This document shows, one piece after another, positions 20,699 through 59,739 of a DNA stretch of 64,000 bases. The position numbers and the translations under genes are program-made. Where the stretch lies: contig NC_090376.1 in assembly GCF_036365525.1 (NCBI RefSeq), forward strand, positions 121,495,388-121,559,387, in the 5' to 3' direction. This DNA comes from Heterodontus francisci (Eukaryota). Within the stretch, counting starts at the first letter, position 1. Each line of letters begins with the position of its first letter. Under the pieces are notes generated by a model, which was not told the origin of the DNA, made no database searches, and saw only the letters and a list, made by a program, of their open reading frames with translations.

Positions 20699-21617
20699 TC
20701 TTCTTCTTTGGCCTCCTTATCTCGAGAGACAATGGGTAAGCGCCTGGAGGTGGTCAGTGGTGTGTGGAGCAGCGCCTGGAGTGGCTATAAAGGCCAATTC
20801 TGGAGTGACAGGCTCTTCCACAGGTGCTGCAGAAAAATGTGTTTGTCGGGGCTGTTACACAGTTGGCTCTCCCCTTGCGCTTTTGTCTTTTTTCCTGCCA
20901 ACTGCTAAGTCTCTTCGACTCGTCACACTTTAGCCCCGCCTTGATGGCTGCCCGCCAGCTCTGGCGAACGCTGGCAACTGACTCCCATGACTTGTGATCA
21001 ATGTCACAGGACTTCATGTCGCGTTTGCAGACGTCTTTAAAGCGGAGACATGGACGGCCGGTGGGTCTGATACCAGTGGCGAGCTCGCTGTACAATGTGT
21101 CTTTGGGGATCCTGCCATCTTCCATGCGGCTCACATAGCCAAGCCATCTCAAGCGCCGCTGACTCAGTAGTGTGTATAAGCTGGGGATGTTGGCCGCCTC
21201 GAGGACTTCTGTGTTGGAGATACGGTCCTGCCACCTGATGCCAAGTATTCTCCGGAGGCAGCGAAGATGGAATGAATTGAGAGGTCGCTCTTGGCTGACA
21301 TACGTTGTCCAGGCCTCGCTGCCATAGAACAAGGTACTGAGGACACAGGCCTGATACACTCGGACTTTTGTGTTCCGTGTCAGTGCGCCATTTTCCCACA
21401 CTCTCTTGGCCAGTCTGGACATAGCACTGGAAGCCTTTCCCATGCGCTTGTTGATTTCTGCATCTAGAGACAGGTTACTGGTGATAGTTGAGCCTAGGTA
21501 GGTGAACTCTTGAACCACTTCCAGAGCGTGGTCGCCAATATTGATGGATGGAGCATTTCTGACGTCCTGCCCCATGATGTTCTTTTTCTTGAGGCTGATG
21601 GTTCGGCCAAATTCAAT
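20699..21617 (-). mobile_element. 5'-truncated RTE-clade LINE (end of RT, C-terminal Cys/His motif, 3' UTR, (AAG)n tail)
   Basis: Open ORF LEVVQEFTYLGS...RRLRWLG...RIPK..LY.EL..G.R..GRP...CSTCGRACHSRIGLYSH. 13-bp TSD GCAAATACAAAAT at 20686-20698 and 21618-21630. Confidence 0.92.
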
Positions 21618-23652
21618 GCAAATACAAAATGCTAGACATAAAAACAAACCCATTAATGGTCCCAGCAATCTCAAATCGAGAGCCACAATCAGTTGGGCCC
21701 AACTGCAATCATCCCTCACAGGACCAGGTTTGCCAACTCTGGAGACTTAATTGTGTGACCTCCCACCTCTAACCAGCCTGTCTAGTCAAACACCCTTTTG
21801 TCCCATTTCCACAATATTTATAAGTGTTCAAAGGAAATTAAAAGAAACAAATGCCCCAACGGTTTTTCTGCTGAGTTGGTCACAGCAGTGTCCATAGAAT
21901 CATACAGCACAGAGACATGAGTTAAATATGTTTACTCCATGACACAAAATCATTTGAATCCTCAAAGGTCTTATGCATTTAAGCCTTCTAGCACCTGACA
22001 AGTTCACTCATTTGGTCATGAACAGGCTCAAGGGGTCATGCATAAGTTTGCTTAGCAATAGAGCTCCTTCCATATTTAACATCAAACAATGTCAGTGTCA
22101 CTGGTTTTTCCCTCATCAATTCTCTCCTTTCCTAAAGGCATTAACGACCCAGAGTGTTTCAATCTGTGGGCATCCACCAGTGCCATTATTCAAAGGTGAG
22201 CCTCAACAATGAGTACTGACCATGTTGGGGGTGGGAGGGGAGGTGAAGGGAGTGGCATCAGTCAACCCCAATTCTGCACTGACCCTATAGCTACATCTCA
22301 TAGCTATCCAATGAGATAAGTCCAATTCTACATGTTAAACAATAATTAAGAGGCAGAACCCTTCCTAACCCAGGGACACTGACATTCCCTGGATCATCTC
22401 TACTGCCAATGCAAGCTAACTTGGCACAAAGAACAAAGCTGACACTTTGCTGGTCTCTATGGCTCAGTTAAGCCCACAAATCACTGGAGAACCTTCAAGG
22501 GTCACTTGCTTCAACTACAAGCAAATAATACTGGCGATTTTAGGCTGGGTCAGTCTGAAGAGATGACAGGTGTTGGGGCACGTTTAGAGGCACATGTTTT
22601 ATGGACAAAAGAAGATTAAAGCATTTAGACCAGAAGCCTTATTGAAGTGCAGATAAGACATAGATTCTGATAAATAAATCAGACTGGAGGTACTTTGCCA
22701 AGATCATCAAGATCTAAACTACTACATAATACAGTATAATCAACAACATCCACTTATAGGAAAAAAGATGAATTTCAGGATAAGCATTTTTGCAACTGTG
22801 TTATAATGGTATCGTTGTCTCCTGGTTCAGGAAACAAACATCAGAAAATAGTAACATCAATGCCATTGTACTTTCCTTGTAGGAAGAGTAAGCAAGGATA
22901 TCACACTTAATTATCCTGCATTTAGTGGATATTAGAAAACAAATGTTTACTTAATTGCCATAAGATTACCTTGATACTGAGCGTCAACCTTCATTCTCCA
23001 CTACCAAAACAAATTTTAAATTTGGCAGATAACTCAAGACCTTTGAAATCATATCAGCAATTCTTTTTGGCCTGCTGAGAATATACATATCAATGTACGG
23101 GGCAACTGACTCTTAAATATACAACTGCAATGGCTGAATCAAAAAGAATAAACTATCATAGAAAGAATAGATCAACAAATGTAACCAAGATCAGCCAACG
23201 CCAAAGTGTGAGCTGTGTCCAACAATAACCAAGATGTCTTTTTCCCACTTAAAGCCATGCAGCCATATGTTTATAAGACTAACATTTATGTAGCACCTTT
23301 CACAACGTCAGAACATCCTATAGCACTTTACAGCCAGCAAAGTACTTTCAAAGTGTAGTCACTGCTGTAATGTAAGAAATGCTGCATCTAATTTGTGCAC
23401 AGCAAGCTTGCACAAACAGCAATGTGATAACAATCAGGTAATCTGTATTTTGTGATGTTGATTGAGGAATAAATATTGGCCCAGGAGACCAAGGAAAACT
23501 CCCCTGTTCTTCAAAATAGTGCCACAGGATCGTTTACATCCACTTGAGGGGTCAGACAGGGTCTTGATTTAATGCTTCATCTGAAAGACAGCACCTGTGA
23601 CAGTGCAGCACTCCCTCAATACTACACTGAGGTGTCAGCTGAGATTTTTGTG

Positions 23653-27141: not shown

Positions 27142-27893
27142 CATGGGTAAGGCTTCCACTGCTATGTTCAGACTGGCCAAGAGAGTGTGGGAAAATGGCG
27201 CACTGACACGGAACACAAAAGTCCGAGTGTATCAGGCCTGTGTCCTCAGTACCTTGCTCTACGGCAGCGAGGCCTGGACAACGTATGCCAGCCAAGAGCG
27301 ACGTCTCAATTCATTCCATCTTCGCTGCCTTCGGAGAATACTTGGCATCAGGTGGCAGGACTATATCTCCAACACAGAAGTCCTTGAAGCGGCCAACATC
27401 CCCAGCTTATACACACTACTGAGTCAGCGGCGCTTGAGATGGCTTGGCCATGTGAGCCGCATGGAAGATGGCAGGATCCCCAAAGACACATTGTACAGCG
27501 AGCTCGCCACTGGTATCAGACCCACCGGCCGTCCATGTCTCCGTTATAAAGACGTCTGCAAACGCGACATGAAATCATGTGACATTGATCACAAGTCGTG
27601 GGAGTCAGTTGCCAGCATTCGCCAGAGCTGGCGGGCAGCCATAAAGACAGGGCTAAATTGTGGCGAGTCGAAGAGACTTAGTAGTTGGCAGGAAAAAAGA
27701 CAGAGGCGCAAGGGGAGAGCCAACTGTGCAACAGCCCCAACAAACAAATTTCTCTGCAGCACCTGTGGAAGAGCCTGTCACTCCAGAATTGGCCTTTATA
27801 GCCACTCCAGGCGCTGCTTCACAAACCACTGACCACCTCCAGGCGCGTATCCATTGTCTCTCGAGATAAGGAGGCCCAAAGAAAGAAAAAAGA
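27142..27893 (+). mobile_element. 5'-truncated RTE LINE of the same family, nested in the Penelope element
   Basis: ORF nearly identical to 20754-21719; A/G-rich tail; 8-bp TSD ACATTGTG at 27134-27141 and 27894-27901. Confidence 0.92.
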
Positions 27894-29249: not shown

Positions 29250-30760
29250 AGAATCATAGAATTATAGAAACTAACAGCACAGAAGGATGCCATTTGGCTT
29301 GTCGAGCCTGTGCTGTCTCCTTGAAAGAGGAATTGTGCATCTCCCACATTCTCACTTTTTGTCCTTAACCTTGTACGTTCCTCATCTTCAAGTACCTAGC
29401 AACATCTTTTTTAAATTATTTATGGAATCAGCTTCCACCACCTTTTCAAATTGAGCATTCCAGATCCGAACTATTCTCTGAGTAAAAAAATTCTCATCAT
29501 CCTCTCTTTAGATCTTTTGCCAATGATTTTGAATCCATGACCTTTTGTTATTGACCCACTCTCCAGAGGGAATAGCTTTTCTCCATATACTCTGTTAAAA
29601 CTTCTTATCAACTTGAAAATCTCTGTTTGGTCACCTCTTAACCTTCTCTGTTCCAAGGAGAACAGTCCTAACTTTTCCAACTTCTCCTCATAACTGATGT
29701 CCCTCATCCCTGGAAACTTGGTAAACCTCCTGTGTACCTTTTCTAATGTCGTTACATCTTTCTTTAAGTGTGGTGTCCAGAATTGTCCACAATACTCCAG
29801 CTGAGGCCTAACCAATGACTCATGAAGTTCTAGCATAATCTATTTGCTTTTTTATTCTATTCTTCTATTTCTAAACCAAGTAATCCATATGCTTTTTTAA
29901 TCTCCTTACCAAATTGCCCTGCCATCTTTAAGGATTTGTGCAAATGGACATCAAGTTCTATCTTCTCTTTAACACTTTTCAAAATTGTGCCTTTTTTTAG
30001 TATACTGCCTTTCCAATTTTAAGCCTCCCAAAGTGATCACTTCACACTTCGCTGTATTGAAGCAGCGCCATGCTTCTACCCATGTCACCATTCTGTCCAA
30101 GTCATCCGGAGGCCTCTGACTATCCTCATCACTATCTAATACTTTTTCAAGTTTTGTATCATCTGCCAGCTTTATAATGTTGCTCCCTAAATCTGAGTCT
30201 AAGTCATTAATAAAAACTGCAAAGAGAAATGGACACAAAACTAAACCTTTGGGAACACCAATGCAAACCACCCCCTAATCTGAAAAGCATCCTTCCACCA
30301 CCATCAGCCTCTGCTATCTGTCAATGAACCAATTTTGTATCCAAACCACCCATAATATTCCGCTCAATACCATGGGCTTCCATCTTCTTAATAAGCCTTC
30401 TGGTAGCCTCCACTTCGTCGATAGTCTTCTGAAAGTCGATATATATAATATATATATAAAAATCTACTGCGCTGTCTTGATCAGCTTTCTCTGTTATCTC
30501 ATCAATTAATTCAATCAAGTTAGTCAGACACGATTTACCTTTAACAAATCCATGCTGGCTCTCCTTAATTAACCCATGCCTTTACAAATGAAAGTTAATT
30601 CTGTCCCTGATGATGGTTTCCAGTAACTTCCTCACCACCGATGTTAGACTGACTGGCCTGTAGTTTCCTGGTTTATCCCTCTCCCCATTTTTGAATAGTG
30701 GTGTAACATTACCAACCCTCCAGTCCTCTGGCACTACTTCTGCATCCAATGAGAATTGTA
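29250..30760 (-). mobile_element. Degraded CR1-clade LINE ORF2 (RT region to 3' end)
   Basis: ORF fragments VPEDWRVGNVTPLFKNG..PGNYRPVSLTS, GVPKGLVL, KLADDTKL, LVRPQLEYCGQFW, with frameshifts. Confidence 0.9.
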
Positions 30761-41686: not shown

Positions 41687-42686
41687 CTGTATGGGTGCGT
41701 TTGTGGATCTTTAAGTTCTCCGACCTGGCGAAAACTTTTCCGCAGCCCGGGAAGGGGCAAGGGAACGGCTTTTCCCCCGTGTGGACCCTGATGTGATTCA
41801 CCAGTTTGTATTTCGCTTTGAAAGGTTTTCCCTCCCGGGCGCAATCTTCCCAGAAGCAGATATGGTTGGTCTGCTCGGGTCCACCGACATGTTCCACCGT
41901 GACGTGGGTGACCAGCTCATGCATGGTGCTGAAAGTTTTGTTGCAGGACTTTTTGGGGTTGCTCATCTGCTCGGGATCGACCCACTTGCAGATGAGCTCC
42001 TGTTTGATGGGCTGCCGCATGTATCTGAAGAAGGCTCCGGGACCGTGGTGAGCTGCCATATTCATGCTCATGTTCATATTCATGTGGCCGTAGTTGTGGT
42101 GGTGATGGAGCTGCGCCGCCGAGTAAGGGTCAGTCCTGGGACACTGGTCCGAGCGGCCAAACACTTCCCCAGGCAGCCCCAAGCGCATCTGCCCGTTGAG
42201 GACGTGCGTGTTTGGAGACGAGTGGGATCCTCCTTGCTCGTGGATGCCGGGGAACAAGATGTGTCCCGAGGTGTCTGAATGCGGGTGATGGAGACTGGCC
42301 GGGTTGGGTCCGAAGATGCCGTGCTGGTTGGAGCCCGCGCTTGAATCGCTGAAGCCGCGACTGCGGAAGATAAAATCCCGGGTGGAGTTGAACGCGGCGC
42401 CCGAGTAAGAGCTGACATGGGCGGCGTGGGGAGCCAGGGCGGACGCGTAGCCCGAGCCAGCGGCCGCTTGCGAGCTGAAAGCCGAGCTCTGGCCGGCCGA
42501 CGAGAGGTCATGGTGGACTCCACCGTTCAGCTTGAAAGCCCCCATGTGCGCTGAGTCGACGAAGGTGTTTTGAGACAAGCCCAGGTCCCGGTCCGACATG
42601 TCGGCGGTGGAGTGGTGATGATGGTGATGTCTGGCAAAAGTGCCCACCCCGAGGGTCGGGAACTGGGGTCCCGCATCCAGCAACAT
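41687..42686 (-). CDS. ZIC2: Zinc finger protein ZIC2, coding exon 1 (N-terminus, ZOC motif, ZF-NC, ZF1-3)
   Basis: [22 protein letters not shown]...[12 protein letters not shown]...[19 protein letters not shown]...HKRTHTG. ZIC2-type rather than ZIC1-type residues ([30 protein letters not shown]). 1000 nt, phase-1 donor CAG|GTAAAA. Confidence 0.95.
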
Positions 42687-52464: not shown

Positions 52465-52800
52465 TGGGTAGGGGCGGGGCGGGGAGGGGGTAGTTTATTG
52501 CAATTCTTTAATGACCAGTTATGGGGTTTCCATGCCATATGAGCCGGTTAAAACAAGTGCCTATTTTCCTGAAGTTTCCGAGTCAAAACTTAAGCAAGAG
52601 GAACATTGTGGGAAGTGTGAGCAGGAGGTGGGAGGATCCCGCTGCGCCGCTCCGCTCAAAACGGGCGAATTGCCTGAACGGCGCATCTGCCAATCACCCC
52701 AAAGTCGCCAATCCCGGCCCTGCCATCTCTGAACTATATTTCCCCACTGTGTCGCCTAACCGCTCTATGTTCTGCCAATCGCTTGAGGACAGAGTGAGAA
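52465..52800 (+). promoter_or_regulatory. Candidate ZIC5 promoter
   Basis: Tandem GC boxes GGGGCGGGGCGGGG at about 52471-52484, three CCAAT boxes (52690, 52708, 52775), CpG-rich. Confidence 0.6.
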
Positions 52801-52940
52801 AGGCAGAGTTAAGAGTGCTCAAAAAAGTGCTTTAACTGCGCTCAATAATATATTTTTAGGCTTTGTTTTTGGGGGGTGGGGGGCGGGAGGGTGGGGGGTG
52901 GGGGGAAGAGAAAAAAAAACTGTACCACCAACTAGCGTGG

Positions 52941-52958
52941 ATGGATAGGCTTGTGTAG
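52941..52958 (+). promoter_or_regulatory. Upstream ORF (MDRLV*) ending 2 nt before the ZIC5 ATG
   Basis: ATG GAT AGG CTT GTG TAG tt ATG, read directly from the sequence. Confidence 0.65.
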
Positions 52959-52960
52959 TT

Positions 52961-53963
52961 ATGGAAGCCGCGTTAAGCAAGCGGAATCCGGGACTGAGAT
53001 TAGCGGACTTGGCAGCAAACAAATACCATCCCCATCAGAATATGTCAGGCTTCCCGGGGCTGGGGAGCCATACACACATCCACCCTGGGGAGATGAACAA
53101 CGATCCCAGCGTGACTCTCACCCCTTTCGGGCCCGAGCACACTGCTCTCAAACTCAGTCCATCTCAACACATGGCTGGACATCCCGAAACGCAGACAGCG
53201 GCGATTTTCGGCTCTGCACAGAACTCGGTCAGCTACCCAGCGGGTCATTCCCACTCAGGCTACGCAAGCGGCAGGGACTACATCCTCAGGAGAGATCTCT
53301 CAGCATCTGCCATGCATGGACTGACTGAACAGCACCCATCTTCTTCCTCCCTTCACCATCAGCACCACCATCACCACGGCGTGTTTCTATCCACAACAGG
53401 TAGTTACGGACACCCGGAGATCTTCCCGGGGCTCCACGAGCAGTCTGCACCGGGATCCCACCACACTTTAAACGGACAAATGCGCCTGGGGTTGCCGGGG
53501 GATCTCTATAGGCCAGAGCATTTTAGCCACAGAGCTGAACACTATCCGGCCTCTTCGCTGCACTCTTACAACTCCATGAACTTAAATGTTAACCTGGCAG
53601 CGGCTCACCATGGAGCCGGTGCATTCTTTAGGTATATGAGACAGCCCATCAAGCAAGAGTTAATCTGCAAGTGGATTGACCAAGAGGAGACTTCAAAGAA
53701 ACCTTGTTCTAAAACTTTCAGCACCATGCATGAGTTAGTAAACCATGTCACTGTGGAGCATGTCGGAGGACCCGAACAGAGCGTTCACATTTGTTACTGG
53801 GAGGATTGCCCCAGAGAAGGGAAACCATTCAAGGCGAAATACAAACTGGTAAATCATATCAGAGTTCACACAGGCGAAAAGCCTTTCCCGTGCCCGTTCC
53901 CGGCCTGTGGTAAGGTATTCGCACGCTCGGAAAACTTGAAGATTCATAAAAGGACTCACACAG
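52961..53963 (+). CDS. ZIC5: Zinc finger protein ZIC5, coding exon 1
   Basis: [19 protein letters not shown] matches the ZIC5 N-terminus (MEPPLSKRNPPALRLADLA, recalled). Contains [11 protein letters not shown] and ZF1-3; 1003 nt with donor CAG|GTTAGT; head-to-head with ZIC2. Confidence 0.95.
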
Positions 53964-56900
53964 GTTAGTGCTTCTAAACAGTTTTCGCTTTGTTCCAAAG
54001 GCCCTCAACAAGCACATCTTGCTATATCGCGGGCAAAGCACTGTTAAGTTAAAAAGAAAAGTGATTACTTTTCCTGAATTGCGAATCTAACGAGTATCAT
54101 TCTCAATATCTCACGAGTACGCTCGTAAACTAATATACTTTATCTACACAGGCTCACAAATTTTAGAATGTGCAACTAAAGCAACGCAGTTTCATTTGAA
54201 AGATTCTGGAGATTTGGGATGTAAGCTAACAGGCCGGGAACATTTTCAAACGGGTTTAAAACTGTGGCGTTCCTTTGTTTCCTGCCCGGGAATGACGATT
54301 CAAGATGTCACAAACTTAAAATGAAGCGACCAGCGCGATTATTGGAAGCGCTGTCAGGGCTGGTTTTAAGAGGCGAAGGCTCCAATTAAAGTCATATATT
54401 TCAATCCAACTTAAAAAAAAAGAATGATCAGGATAAAGTGAAAGACAAGAATTATAAATTAGGATAGGAAGATTTCAACGCAGTCTTGTGAAAGGCTTAG
54501 GAAAAGGAAGGGAATCAAGTTTGTAATCAGACCGAACAAGTTGGACATTTTGGTGTTGAAATATGGTCTTTAAGAGTCTCTGAGAGAAACTATGCCGATA
54601 CACTTACAGGCAGCATGCTAGTGTTCGACTTCATAATTAGAATCATGAAGATTTTTGTGATCTAACGGCAGTAAACACGCCGAAGGATGAATCACTGCAT
54701 CTAAATCCCCCGAGGGTGCGCCCTATCTAACTTGAACAAAGTTTACTACGGATCTCTCGTATATCGTTTTAGTTCCTGGCGAAATCAGGTAACCTGGTCA
54801 GAATTTATTGTTGCAGACAGATATTATCCCTTGGAGAATGTTTATTGACGTATGCTTTGCTTAATTGTTTCTACTGATTTATAGCGTGCTGTCACAGGGT
54901 ATAAACAGATAGTGTTACACCTATTCGTTTAATGCCTTCTTAATTTGTTGTTTAAATGTTAAAGCAAATGGTCCATGACTGCTCTGATTACAGATTTTAT
55001 CTAAAGAATATGTTGCACAAGTTTTTTTTTTAAAAAGCATGGCGAAGTGGGGAGTGGCAGCGAACTGGGGACCTGTATTCCAGCTGTGTTAGTAAAGAGC
55101 CAATTGTGGGATAGATCCTCCATCTCTACTATAAGAGGAATGTGGAAAGAAATGAACAAGTTTTAAAACTTCAATTTTATTTAAATCGAGGTATTCTATC
55201 TTTCCAGCACTGTATGCTAAAGCAGGAATTATAAATGAGGACAGTACAACTCACTGGAGTAGTGAACACTCCTGTTTCCTTGTGTCTTTTCAAGGCCTTT
55301 TCCTGGTTGCAAACTCGAGCTATAAAATGGCCATTTGTTAACCTTTTGAATAGTGTCCACTTCGACCTAAAAAAAACTGGAGTTCAGGCAGGAAACGTTA
55401 ACTGGTCACATAATAATTACTTTAAAAAATGGGTCATAGATTAAAAATAACACAAAAATGGTAATTAGCGTCACACAGGGAAGCAGAATTACTTTCTTCA
55501 CTCCAGTGAAGCTACAAGGTAAAGTGCTCCTAAACTTCGAGTCCATCCCAACAAATGGAAATGCTGTTGCTACCAGTATGTTAAGGAGTAGTTGCAGTAT
55601 ATAGTTCGCCGCAGAAACACAACTGCGCTGCAGGAGCTAGTTTCGCCACTGCATTTCAAAGACTGTGTTTGGAAAAATAAAATACAGATATATGTCAATG
55701 TAACCTCAGGCATAAGCACGCACAATATGGCGATGAGAGCCAAGTGTGTTGGTAAAGTTAATTACCATAATTCTGTGCTTTAAAAAATTGTGTTTTCGAA
55801 TGGATATGTGTTATCCGCCTTTTGGTTTCAGGGTTGCAGAATTGATAAGATTGGGAAGCCCTAAGTGTTCAGCCACATGCGTTGTCTTACCCTGGGGTTT
55901 GCTGAGAGTGTGTGTTGTGTTTGATACATCAAGTAGAATGGGCTTGTGTTTGTGTTGTCCAAACGAAGTCATTGATGTTATGAAAGCCACATCCTTATAA
56001 GAGGAAATTCTACTCTGGCTCTGCTTTGTATTGATTCACACAAAAAATGTGGTCTAAACAATGCAGCTTAAATAGGACGATGTCTTGGACCACGAGGAAA
56101 TATGACCACCAAACTGCACAGGTTCATAATGACAGGAAAGTGATGCCAGGTTCAAATGGGTTCTGTTTACTCGCAAAGTCAGGAACGAGGTTATGTTTGA
56201 GGGCGAATCCGTTTTTATCAGTCAAGTGCTTTCTGCATCTCAGCTCACGCAAAACGCAACTCGGCAATCAAAAGCTGTCAGTGTCTTTTTCCTAACATGC
56301 AGCTTGGGGCGAGAAACTCCGAAGGAACCGCCAGGCCAAACGCCAGGCGCATTCGAAGTGCTAGTTTATGACCAGCCTGTGGGATTCATGCACTGCATCG
56401 AGCTGCAGCAGAGCTAAATATAAATATTTACAATATACAAATAGAACCGAGCTGGCGGAGAACTGGAAGGCGCCGATGGTCACTGCATTAGTTCATCTCC
56501 ATCTCAAACCCTACGTAAGAATATTAGCACGAAATGCATCTAAAACAGGGAGATTTTTTAAAAAAAAGATTCCGCCAAGTGCATGTCAGATTCTAAGATA
56601 TTGAATGCAAGTAAGTTTCAACCATATTAGAACGAACAGTCCAAATATTTTAATTATGCAAAATGCGTGTTCTTACAAAGATGGCCACCAATCCTGGTGT
56701 TATTGTCCACATTCCATTTAACTTCAAGCACAGGATCGAAATAAACAATAACGAATGTGATATGAATCCGATTTCCATTGAAAACCTAATCTAAGAATAA
56801 ACATGTAAGCGAGATAACTGGCTGGCTAGTTTTTGAGAAGTTGGCCTATATTTGTGGCGTTGCTCCTGGTGATTTGGGAAATGTTAATGTAACATGCCCT

Positions 56901-57565
56901 AACTCTTAATACTGTACATAAGTATCAGATTACTAGGGACCGAATTACAGAATAAACAGTGAAAGGAACGCACTAAGGTGAAAAAAAGCGAGGCCCCGGC
57001 TTGATCTTCACAGTGGCCTAACCGGTTTAATTCGACTTTTTACAGATTTTAAACTGAACTAATCCTGACTATTCAAATATCAAGCACCAATATTCCCTTC
57101 GCAATTACCCCGCCGAACAGCCTGGAAGGTCGTATGAAAGAGAAAGATAAATTTTAAAATATATCAGCGGAAGTATTTTTTTAAAGTTGTCTTAAAACTT
57201 CTGGCCAACGAGTTTACAATCATATCAGCGCTAATTTCACTTTCCAAGTTAAACCTTGGGGATTAAAACTGTTAGTCGAAGTTGAAAGCTTTTCAATATT
57301 TTAGAGGAAGCATGTGGAATTTGCCTGAAATGCGTTTTAGGCAGAGAGATGACTTTAATTTTCGCATATTATTCAGGACAATCTTAGGAAACAGAAACGA
57401 TCCCACCAAACTACAGAGTAAATTAAGTAATTTGCTTTCAAAACTGAGTTTTCCATATGTCCTCCAGAACACAAAGGAAAGCTATGATATCTCGTAGATC
57501 CCTTAACTCCGCCAGCTGGCCACCGTCGTAAAGTCTCCACTTTAAAAACATGTATAATTAAAAGA

Positions 57566-57672
57566 AGAAAACTTGCATTTCTATCGCGCCTTTCACGATC
57601 TCAGGACGTCCCAAAGCGTATTACAGGCAATGAAATACTTTTTGATGTGCAGTCACTGCTGTAATGTAGGAA
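57566..57672 (-). mobile_element. Isolated SINE 3'-tail fragment in the ZIC5 intron
   Basis: CTTGCATTTCTATCGCGCCTTTCACGATCTCAGGACGTCCCAAAGCG...GTAATGTAGGAA matches the tail of the Deu-like SINE. Confidence 0.8.
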
Positions 57673-57815
57673 CTTACTTATGTAACCAAGACTAAAATCA
57701 TTGCAATAAACGTTTGAATTCTGAACAGTCTACACAATCAGTAGAAAAATGAAAAAATTACTGCGTAAAACCCCTCGATTTTGTCCCCTCATTGTGTTTT
57801 TCTTATTATTTGCAG

Positions 57816-58249
57816 GAGAGAAGCCTTTTAAATGCGAGTTCGATGGCTGTGACAGAAAATTTGCCAATAGCAGTGACAGGAAAAAGCATTCTCATGTCCA
57901 TACCAGTGATAAGCCGTACAACTGTAAAGTGAGAGGCTGTGACAAGTCTTACACTCATCCTAGTTCGCTTCGCAAACACATGAAGGTGCATTGCAAATCT
58001 CCCCCACCTCCTCTCAGCTCTGGCTACGAGCTCTCAAACACATCCTTGGGGATGGTGTCTCCGGCCTCAGAACCAGTCAGGGGCCGCACTGCCAGCGTCT
58101 CTTCGCAAGTCACCAACCTCAATGAATGGTATGTCTGCCAGGGGAGCGGGGCTGCCAATAGCCTCCACACACCTTCAAGCAATGGCACCTCATCCGACAC
58201 CGAGGATGAGGAGGCCTACAGGAACTCTGATCCCAGGACTATGCTCTGA
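57816..58249 (+). CDS. ZIC5: ZIC5 coding exon 2 (ZF4-5 and C-terminus ...[11 protein letters not shown]...[16 protein letters not shown]...)
   Basis: tatttgcAG acceptor, phase 1; ZIC5-specific tail after NEWYV. The two exons total 1437 nt = 478 aa plus stop. Confidence 0.96.
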
Positions 58250-59733
58250 CATAGGAGTGTTGGAGAAGTGTGCATGTGGGCACCATGAGAAGTGCCAAGA
58301 GAGGGTTTGTGGCAATGGCGGCCATCAAATAAAACCAGTCAAGGTGTCCTATGGCCATCTTAAACCAACTAGGTTCAAACCTCGTAGGAAAACAATTTAA
58401 GGGCTATAGACCTGATCCTATGCAGCTTTCTGGCCTATGCTCTCAATCTCTGTGTCAGCCAAGATTATTGTGTGAACATCGAAGCTAAAGAGACTCACAA
58501 TTTGATTTCTTTTAAGACTGTAAATATTGAGTATATGAAATCAAATGTGACTTAAAGAAATTAAAACATATCATCTGACCTACATCGGGCTAGTAATAGT
58601 ATTTACTGCCGAGCAGAAAACATCTCCGCTTTCTGGAACTGGTAGACTACATATCCAGCCTTTCTTAACTCCCCATACAGACAATTCCCCTCGAGTGCTG
58701 GAAATGGCTTTTAGGGCAGTGTTGTAGTGTAACAAATCGACGGTCTGAGCGAAGGGATCTCCCACACTTCTGTGACATGACGGTGGCCAATATGATACAA
58801 GCTCTGGAGAGGAAAAGATCGCCACGTTGACCCGGTACTGTCGGGGTTCGGTTTTAAAACACAAGCAAGAGTTCATGTATATCTGCCCCAAAATATGCAC
58901 TGTTGCAAAAAGAGCTGAATTAGGACTTTCCTATTACATGTGAAACGAGTCACACATCCGTAATGCTGAAACTCGCGAGGACTCTATTTGACCATGTGAA
59001 ATCAATACCGACAATATATCAACTTTTAAAACCAAGGGCCCTGGGATTCTGTAGAACCAACCTTTTATGTGATCTTCTATCCACCATGGTATAGTCAAAA
59101 TATTCATACTTTCCTTATAATTATTCAGGCCTTCATACAAACAAACTAAAGAGCACTAATATGTCCTCAGAGGCCAGAAGACGCCAAAATGACAGGCCTG
59201 TCCCTGTAGGGTTTGTACATAATTGTTGTGGGCTGCTAGTCGTTGATATAATCGTTAGCTACCTTAAGATTTTCGTCCGTAAATGCTCTTTTATTTGTAA
59301 ACTATAATTTATTTGCTGATGTGTAATATCTTTCTGCAATAGTACAGATACACCAAAGAATATATTATTACGTTTGGTGCAGTATCGTGGTGTTTATGAA
59401 CCTGTGGATTGTCAGAACATTTATTTTCTGCTTACTTGAATGAAATGTGAAATGTGAAAATGAAAATATGTGATTGTTTATTTCTTCCTGGTGCTGTAAC
59501 TACAGTATTGGTGCATATGTTATTATTACGATGCATGTTGCAGTCATTTTGCATTTCCCTTACATTAACAAACACTGCTCAGAACCTCTGATTGGAATCT
59601 ACAAACCCAAACAAAAATGCAACGGAGAGATAACAGTCCCTTTAAAGCAATGAACGATCTACGTGTATTTCGATTTAGAAATGTGTTTCAGTGAAGGAGG
59701 TTTAACCATGTGACAATGTATTTTAAAATTGTG

Positions 59734-59739
59734 AATAAA
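59734..59739 (+). terminator. Candidate ZIC5 polyadenylation signal AATAAA
   Basis: AATAAA about 1.5 kb after the stop, followed by GU/U-rich sequence; Pumilio-type sites at 58519 and 59214 in the intervening UTR. Confidence 0.55.

Follow-up and report, generated by a model that had tools for sequence, protein, structure and literature searches.

The window, the whole 64,000-nucleotide stretch of DNA from the shark-like fish Heterodontus francisci that was analysed here, contains a ZIC2/ZIC5 gene pair in head-to-head arrangement. The open reading frame beginning at position 52961 shows 92% identity to named shark ZIC5 proteins and, spliced from 53963 to 57816, encodes a protein of 478 amino acids. 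ZIC2 exon 1 lies head to head with it on the reverse strand at position 42686, approximately 10.3 kb away; no ATG is present in the 150 nt upstream of that exon, where GT repeats and a G tract are found. In a catshark model (P0242) ZIC5 is fused to upstream sequence resembling the opposite strand of ZIC2, probably as an artefact of prediction. Elsewhere in the window, the open reading frames at 20754-21653 and 29471-29836 on the reverse strand and at 27143-27832 on the forward strand are presumably fragments of LINE retrotransposons. The genome as a whole has three ZIC pairs, on contigs C6, C11 and C15; by similarity to named proteins, the locus on C11 (L003) is ZIC4-like and that on C15 (L002) ZIC6-like. 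For the pairing scheme of the ZIC genes and the subclass B ZIC proteins we relied on passages of PMC7403390. Coordinates of the features discussed are collected in Table 1.

Table 1. Features at and around the ZIC5 start in the window, in order of position.
Feature	Position	Strand	Basis and remarks
Three CCAAT boxes (52690, 52708, 52775), putative ZIC5 proximal promoter	52690..52779	+	Motif positions; promoter function inferred
TATA-like element	52846..52854	+	Motif only, function inferred; mouse counterpart directly 5' of the MFLK ATG
TTG at the probable site of the lobe-finned upstream ATG; not ATG, out of frame	52863..52865	+	Weak match, score 16; tentative
G-rich tract followed by A run	52871..52919	+	Length varies by species; relatives' contigs break there
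Predicted hairpin, -8.2 kcal/mol, upstream AUG in 3' arm	52920..52948	+	Single-sequence prediction
30-nt leader block homologous to ZIC4 codons 1-10	52931..52960	+	16/30 identical, ungapped; 3/30 and 5/30 further upstream
Out-of-frame (+1) five-codon uORF, Met-Asp-Arg-Leu-Val-stop	52941..52958	+	Direct reading; geometry matched in mouse and organism B
TAG in ZIC5 frame	52946..52948	+	Only in the window's genome of five compared; CAG in B, CTG in C, D and G
ZIC5 exon 1, coding part, main ATG at 52961	52961..53963	+	92% identity to named shark ZIC5
Met28, next ATG in any frame	53042..53044	+	83 nt past the uORF stop; candidate reinitiation site
ZIC5 exon 2 to AATAAA at 59734, CDS end 58249	57816..59739	+	Exon end inferred from length of a relative's contig

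Directly before the ZIC5 start lies a short upstream open reading frame (uORF), consisting of an ATG at 52941-52943, four sense codons, a TAG at 52956-52958 and then TT before the main ATG, so that both an AUG and its in-frame stop are found 5' of the main start. An earlier sequence-only reading of this DNA had described a five-codon uORF ending 2 nt before the main ATG, and had read the leader in the ZIC5 frame as interrupted by a TAG at 52946-52948; direct reading bears out both descriptions. The upstream ATG (uATG) is the sole ATG within the 190 nt upstream of the ZIC5 start. Its context, with T at -3 and G at +4, is intermediate to weak, that of the main ATG, with G at both positions, strong. 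Further downstream the ATG of Met28 has A at -3, and the next Met after the ZIC5 start falls at residue 28 or 29 in 164 of 175 orthologues. Within window positions 52961-53041, the first 20 residues of the protein include the invariant residues R, P, L, R, L, D and L common to ZIC4, ZIC5 and ZIC6-like proteins, a motif that would be absent from an isoform starting at Met28. Taken in one species alone, the uORF geometry is not far above chance and its support comes from conservation: at 44.5% of 127,200 window positions an out-of-frame ATG occurs no more than 50 nt upstream, and at 6.4% such an ATG has a stop ending within -5 to +4.

Conservation was assessed against five sequence runs from four related organisms (B, C, D and G), alongside the window's own genome. 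Two of these bear on the extent of the mRNA. A contig of 2972 nt from organism B, presumed to be RNA, begins at 52912, 29 nt before the uATG; counted along exon 1 from that point and on through exon 2, its length ends at 59735, on the AATAAA at 59734. It fits a spliced mRNA with the uATG inside. A contig of 2894 nt from organism G likewise spans the uATG, although assembly breaks at the A run, where both contigs begin, and the true start site may differ. The sequence-only reading depended on transcription not starting downstream of 52941, and the mRNA-length contig of B, which contains the uATG, is as that reading would have it. Since the last 49 nt of the leader are inside this contig, they are not promoter only. 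In two runs cover is lacking on the 5' side of the G tract, a side that DNA runs do cover; because contigs break at the homopolymer, we did not take this as a guide to the start site.

The uATG and the TAG at -5 to -3 are unchanged in B, C, D and G among the differences listed, which comprise all 5 for B, 19 of 41 for C, 36 of 42 for D and 7 of 12 for G, the remainder probably lying near the ends; for D every A and G change is accounted for, and two T bases are not covered. The leader of B differs only at 52946, leaving the uORF intact. For C, D and G, changes at 52946, 52947 and 52949 are among those listed, and the third codon of the uORF is TGA. The five-codon geometry abutting the main ATG is therefore not fixed, giving way in three of the four relatives to two codons ending 11 nt before the start. 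The probability of chance retention among the sharks, given 6 variable sites in 45, is 0.64 for the ATG and 0.40 for the TAG. The latter is kept in G, and probably in D, although the uORF already stops earlier there; because the uORF of G ends earlier, the TAG at -5 to -3 is not explained by the uORF. As to the TAG in the ZIC5 frame, it is by this comparison a recent change, and we rejected it as an ancient feature on its absence from all four relatives, which have CAG or CTG. For the same reason it has no bearing on the human N-terminal extension, against whose coding status it had earlier been invoked. A conserved uORF peptide was also rejected: neither peptide nor length is kept, the window and mouse sharing only Met and the last Val, and C, D and G having two codons.

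At greater distance, the mouse Zic5 leader (NM_022987, read by eye from a supplement row of PMC9456764) has an ATG at -20, four codons, a TAG and TT before the annotated start, and the context of its uATG, T(-3)/G(+4), is the same as in shark. This arrangement at this place had been anticipated by the sequence-only reading, partly from the human protein, and the agreement is thus not fully independent. The human extension quoted there is matched by the gibbon (P0127) and siamang (P0187) proteins, whose Tyr-Gly and Val-Val are compatible with the ATG and the TAG. The main-frame codons that carry the two triplets specify His and Ile in mouse, Asp and Val in shark, so that ATG and TAG are kept though the residues differ. 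Of the final 30 leader bases, 18 are identical between shark and mouse, and all six bases of ATG and TAG are among them (p about 0.03; for the ATG alone, p 0.20). On this alignment the ZIC5 leader is conserved as DNA between the two animals. Further upstream in mouse, the MFLK ATG at -70 is out of frame and opens a uORF of 19 codons, which is nested with the five-codon uORF from -20 in a different frame. Two vole-family rodent proteins (P0081 and P0280) begin Met-Met.

Other vertebrates were surveyed through 90 orthologue proteins annotated with at least 10 residues before the main Met, a set in which only in-frame leaders are visible. Wobble bases being invisible in proteins, an ATG or TAG was scored as possible where the residues allow it, which does not prove it present; by this measure 80 of the 90 could have the ATG and 83 the TAG. 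Residues incompatible with the ATG occur in lungfish, kangaroo rat, pika, shrew, two lorisoids, two sirenians and two poorly aligned fish models. The eight well-aligned cases represent about six independent losses, a rate similar to that of adjacent bases. For two species no stop is possible ahead of the start. The uORF is consequently not the jawed-vertebrate-wide element first proposed, failing in those eight well-aligned species, and the conservation of uATG and TAG expected on that proposal holds in mouse and in organism B, with a shortened uORF in C, D and G and no possible ATG in 10 of the 90. Among 28 distinct non-mammalian decapeptides the pair of residues carrying the ATG and following G is the least variable (Gly in all 28; Asp in 26, with His in one more); Asp, Tyr and His at the carrier site each permit xAT, and the residue after Asp-Gly tolerates replacement of Leu by Arg or Pro. 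In mammals the carrier pair changes about as often as neighbouring residues. Constraint seems, from these comparisons, to act on the AUG and adjoining positions rather than on peptide or length, and to be loose, with loss in several mammals. In mammalian ZIC5 proteins P0126-P0139 and P0185-P0196 one additional Leu codon precedes the main Met, giving a pyrimidine at -3; with this codon the context of the main start would be weaker in most mammals than in other vertebrates.

Comparison with the paralogues provides a likely source for the uATG. In ZIC4 of the same genome a +1-frame ATG is positioned at exactly -20 from the shared Met. The ZIC4 N-terminal decapeptide (PMC7403390, in the passages used) resembles the ZIC5 leader in register to that Met, at 16 of 30 bases and with the ATG at -20, and is well conserved across 34 ZIC4 proteins. 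The ZIC4 block differs in following its own ATG and being annotated as coding, the out-of-frame ATG being internal there and upstream in ZIC5. In L003 the ATG at -20 from Met11 opens six codons, the TGA of which overlaps the Met11 ATG inside the annotated CDS; the N-terminus of this protein has four in-frame Met codons within 11. In the ZIC6-like L002 there is a six-codon +1-frame uORF with its ATG at -26 and a TAG ending 5 nt before the start. That uORF resembles the ZIC4 one in sequence, and further uATGs occur at -100, -125 and -131. In a chimaera ZIC6-like model (P0082) an ATG at that place is impossible. The out-of-frame ATG is likely, on these alignments, to be older than the paralogue split and to be built into an Asp codon. 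It would consist of the last two bases of that codon plus the next G, derived from an old ZIC4-like N-terminus, and would become an exposed uAUG in a gene lacking the first Met. Loss of Met1 by ZIC5 and its gain by ZIC4 are both compatible with these alignments, as no jawless-fish outgroup was found, with no lamprey or hagfish protein among 47 and 15 matches. A teleost ZIC6 (P0287) is annotated to start at the Met homologous to Met28, which suggests that a shorter form of ZIC5 may be possible.

Our preferred reading, to which we attach about even confidence, is that the five-codon uORF captures a minority of scanning ribosomes and modestly lowers the production of full-length ZIC5. By general scanning rules, together with passages of PMC4890304 and PMC3045505, most 40S subunits would leak past the uAUG with its T(-3) and initiate at the strong main AUG. 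Ribosomes that translate the uORF would stop too near the main AUG for good reinitiation, and would then drop off or resume scanning to Met28. A short intercistronic distance is associated in passages of these papers with less reinitiation and more repression, and C/EBP-alpha, according to the review PMC3045505 in the part drawn upon, reinitiates well across 7 nt. Ordinary start-proximal vertebrate uORFs, as portrayed in passages of PMC4890304, are like that of ZIC5 in their AUG start, weak context, predicted leaky scanning and modest repression; the ZIC5 uORF is unlike them in lying in the zone depleted of uORFs, in having its position held from shark to mouse and in mapping onto a paralogue's coding N-terminus. 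As regards existing catalogues, the supplements of PMC10032668 have no ZIC5 entry; short ORFs were called there mainly in heart, making this weak evidence against translation. ZIC5 was likewise not found in the supplements of PMC4890304 and PMC11057154 or in the parts searched of PMC9789052 and PMC5701008, and Zic is not mentioned in the portions of bioRxiv 2020.06.29.165878 that were covered.

The region upstream of the uORF has the appearance of a promoter. Conservation of its CCAAT block at the DNA level extends to mouse, teleosts, frogs, turtles and a crocodilian, and in mouse the upstream ATG adjoins the TATA-like element, 3' of the CCAAT boxes, the same blocks being present in the window. 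The long N-termini annotated for teleost, turtle, frog and crocodilian ZIC5 were rejected as real protein, being promoter read in different frames. The promoter block at 52707-52853 in the window corresponds to the annotated N-termini of P0007, P0179, P0148 and P0125, which are likely over-extended annotations. A YY1-like motif was considered as a possible cause of the conservation.

Is the leader, instead, coding? An extension of 23-24 residues is at issue. Of 19 lobe-finned orthologues retrieved by a search that could not see it (one more being without the motif), 14 carry it in frame in their annotation, and so do 46 of 47 cluster members (9 partial members set aside), nearly always with 23 or 24 residues; these counts may be inflated where annotations were copied from one another. 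These figures, together with a register equal to that of the ZIC4 N-terminus, well conserved in 34 proteins, favour a leader translated as this extension, or as a 10-residue ZIC4-like one from a non-AUG start, under selection at the protein level, with the uATG as a by-product of the Asp-Gly codons. We nevertheless judge this unlikely. The MFLK-type extension occurs in 0 of 60 ray-finned (11 without the motif) and 0 of 17 cartilaginous-fish proteins, and neither the window nor mouse combines an in-frame start, an open frame and conservative substitutions: the extension is frameshifted in mouse, while the window's genome has a stop codon and offers neither GTG nor CTG at the codon equivalent to Met1. 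Substitutions in the extension are radical (mean BLOSUM -0.98, 64% negative) by comparison with those in the next 23 residues (-0.32, 41%), and identity is 0.69 against 0.83. The proposal that the human extension is really untranslated leader thus stands for shark and for mouse, but is too strong elsewhere, given the in-frame extensions of the other lobe-finned orthologues. We infer that the upstream ATG of the extension lies in or near the core promoter, and that most tetrapods kept the frame mainly because an in-frame extension would be harmless and an out-of-frame AUG costly.

More serious, though still something we would bet against, is the possibility of a passenger uATG: the block would be what remains of a ZIC4-like coding sequence, preserved at the DNA level, for instance as core promoter just downstream of the start site or as Kozak context of the main ATG, and the uORF would have little effect. 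The promoter and leader are indeed kept in shifting frames from shark to mouse, the ATG at -20 is also found inside the ZIC4 coding sequence, and it has been lost repeatedly among orthologues. The same possibility draws on the human ZIC5 leader's place in a list of hyperconserved 5'UTRs (table S1 of PMC7484617), on the report in passages of PMC9456764 that such leaders are mostly promoters, and on the Zic5 row of the latter, where 10 start-site reads are internal and 0 fall at the annotated 5' end; the passages and rows of both papers that were consulted make no mention of a Zic5 uORF. ZIC5 is like these hyperconserved developmental leaders in being listed in both papers and in having CCAAT and TATA-like elements inside the mouse leader, and unlike the promoter-only ones in that a relative's mRNA-length contig takes in the final 49 nt of its leader. 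Against a passenger, shark and mouse have both wobble bases needed for ATG and TAG in common though the residues differ; furthermore, uATGs are depleted near starts (PMC4890304, in passages), and a neutral one would therefore tend to be purged. It is highly improbable that the conserved feature is an RNA hairpin masking the uAUG or setting the pace of scanning. Its folding is more stable than expected over 100 nt (z -2.2; 3 of 200 shuffles as stable), and two of the relatives' changes, judged by eye, preserve pairing, but the stem is weak and comes from a single-sequence prediction, one relative's change disrupts a pair and no mouse counterpart is obvious by eye.

Beyond the modest repression that we prefer, the uORF could serve an isoform switch in the style of C/EBP and as old as the jawed vertebrates, an idea we consider improbable. 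After duplication of subclass-B ZIC genes, loss of the first Met would have turned a ZIC4-like coding N-terminus into a leader and exposed the AUG; the uORF would route ribosomes to Met28, producing, in proportions that depend on the translational state of the cell, a ZIC5 without its conserved first 27 residues. C/EBP-alpha and C/EBP-beta (PMC3045505, in the part drawn upon) likewise have a small out-of-frame uORF just before the main AUG, as is found here, the gap being 7 nt in C/EBP-alpha versus 2 nt in shark ZIC5 and mouse. A downstream in-frame AUG within reinitiation range is also present, Met28 lying 83 nt on with no ATG between. The ZIC5 of lobe-finned vertebrates is further C/EBP-like in having an in-frame upstream start, annotated in most orthologues and giving an extended form, besides the conserved in-frame AUG further down. 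Unlike in C/EBP, however, the window has no upstream in-frame start for ZIC5, the mouse one is out of frame, the short and extended isoforms are putative, the short form would be without only 27 residues and the uORF is lost in several mammals. Met28 may be conserved as a residue rather than as a start.

No paper on a ZIC5 uORF or on the choice of its start codon was found in full-text searches whose coverage lies mostly outside subscription journals. From the comparisons presented here, the ZIC5 uORF is real and positionally conserved from shark to mouse, if labile in length and lost in several lineages, and its origin is traceable to paralogue coding sequence. Were the uATG a passenger, the finding would reduce to a note on annotation. 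ZIC5 is a developmental transcription factor also studied in cancers, in the sources sampled, and a uORF held from shark to mouse offers a one-base test of translational control; the comparison bears, too, on the choice of start codon in tetrapod ZIC5 annotations. If true, the preferred reading would make this a clear example of coding sequence that has turned into a regulatory uORF, legible since ZIC4 still codes there.
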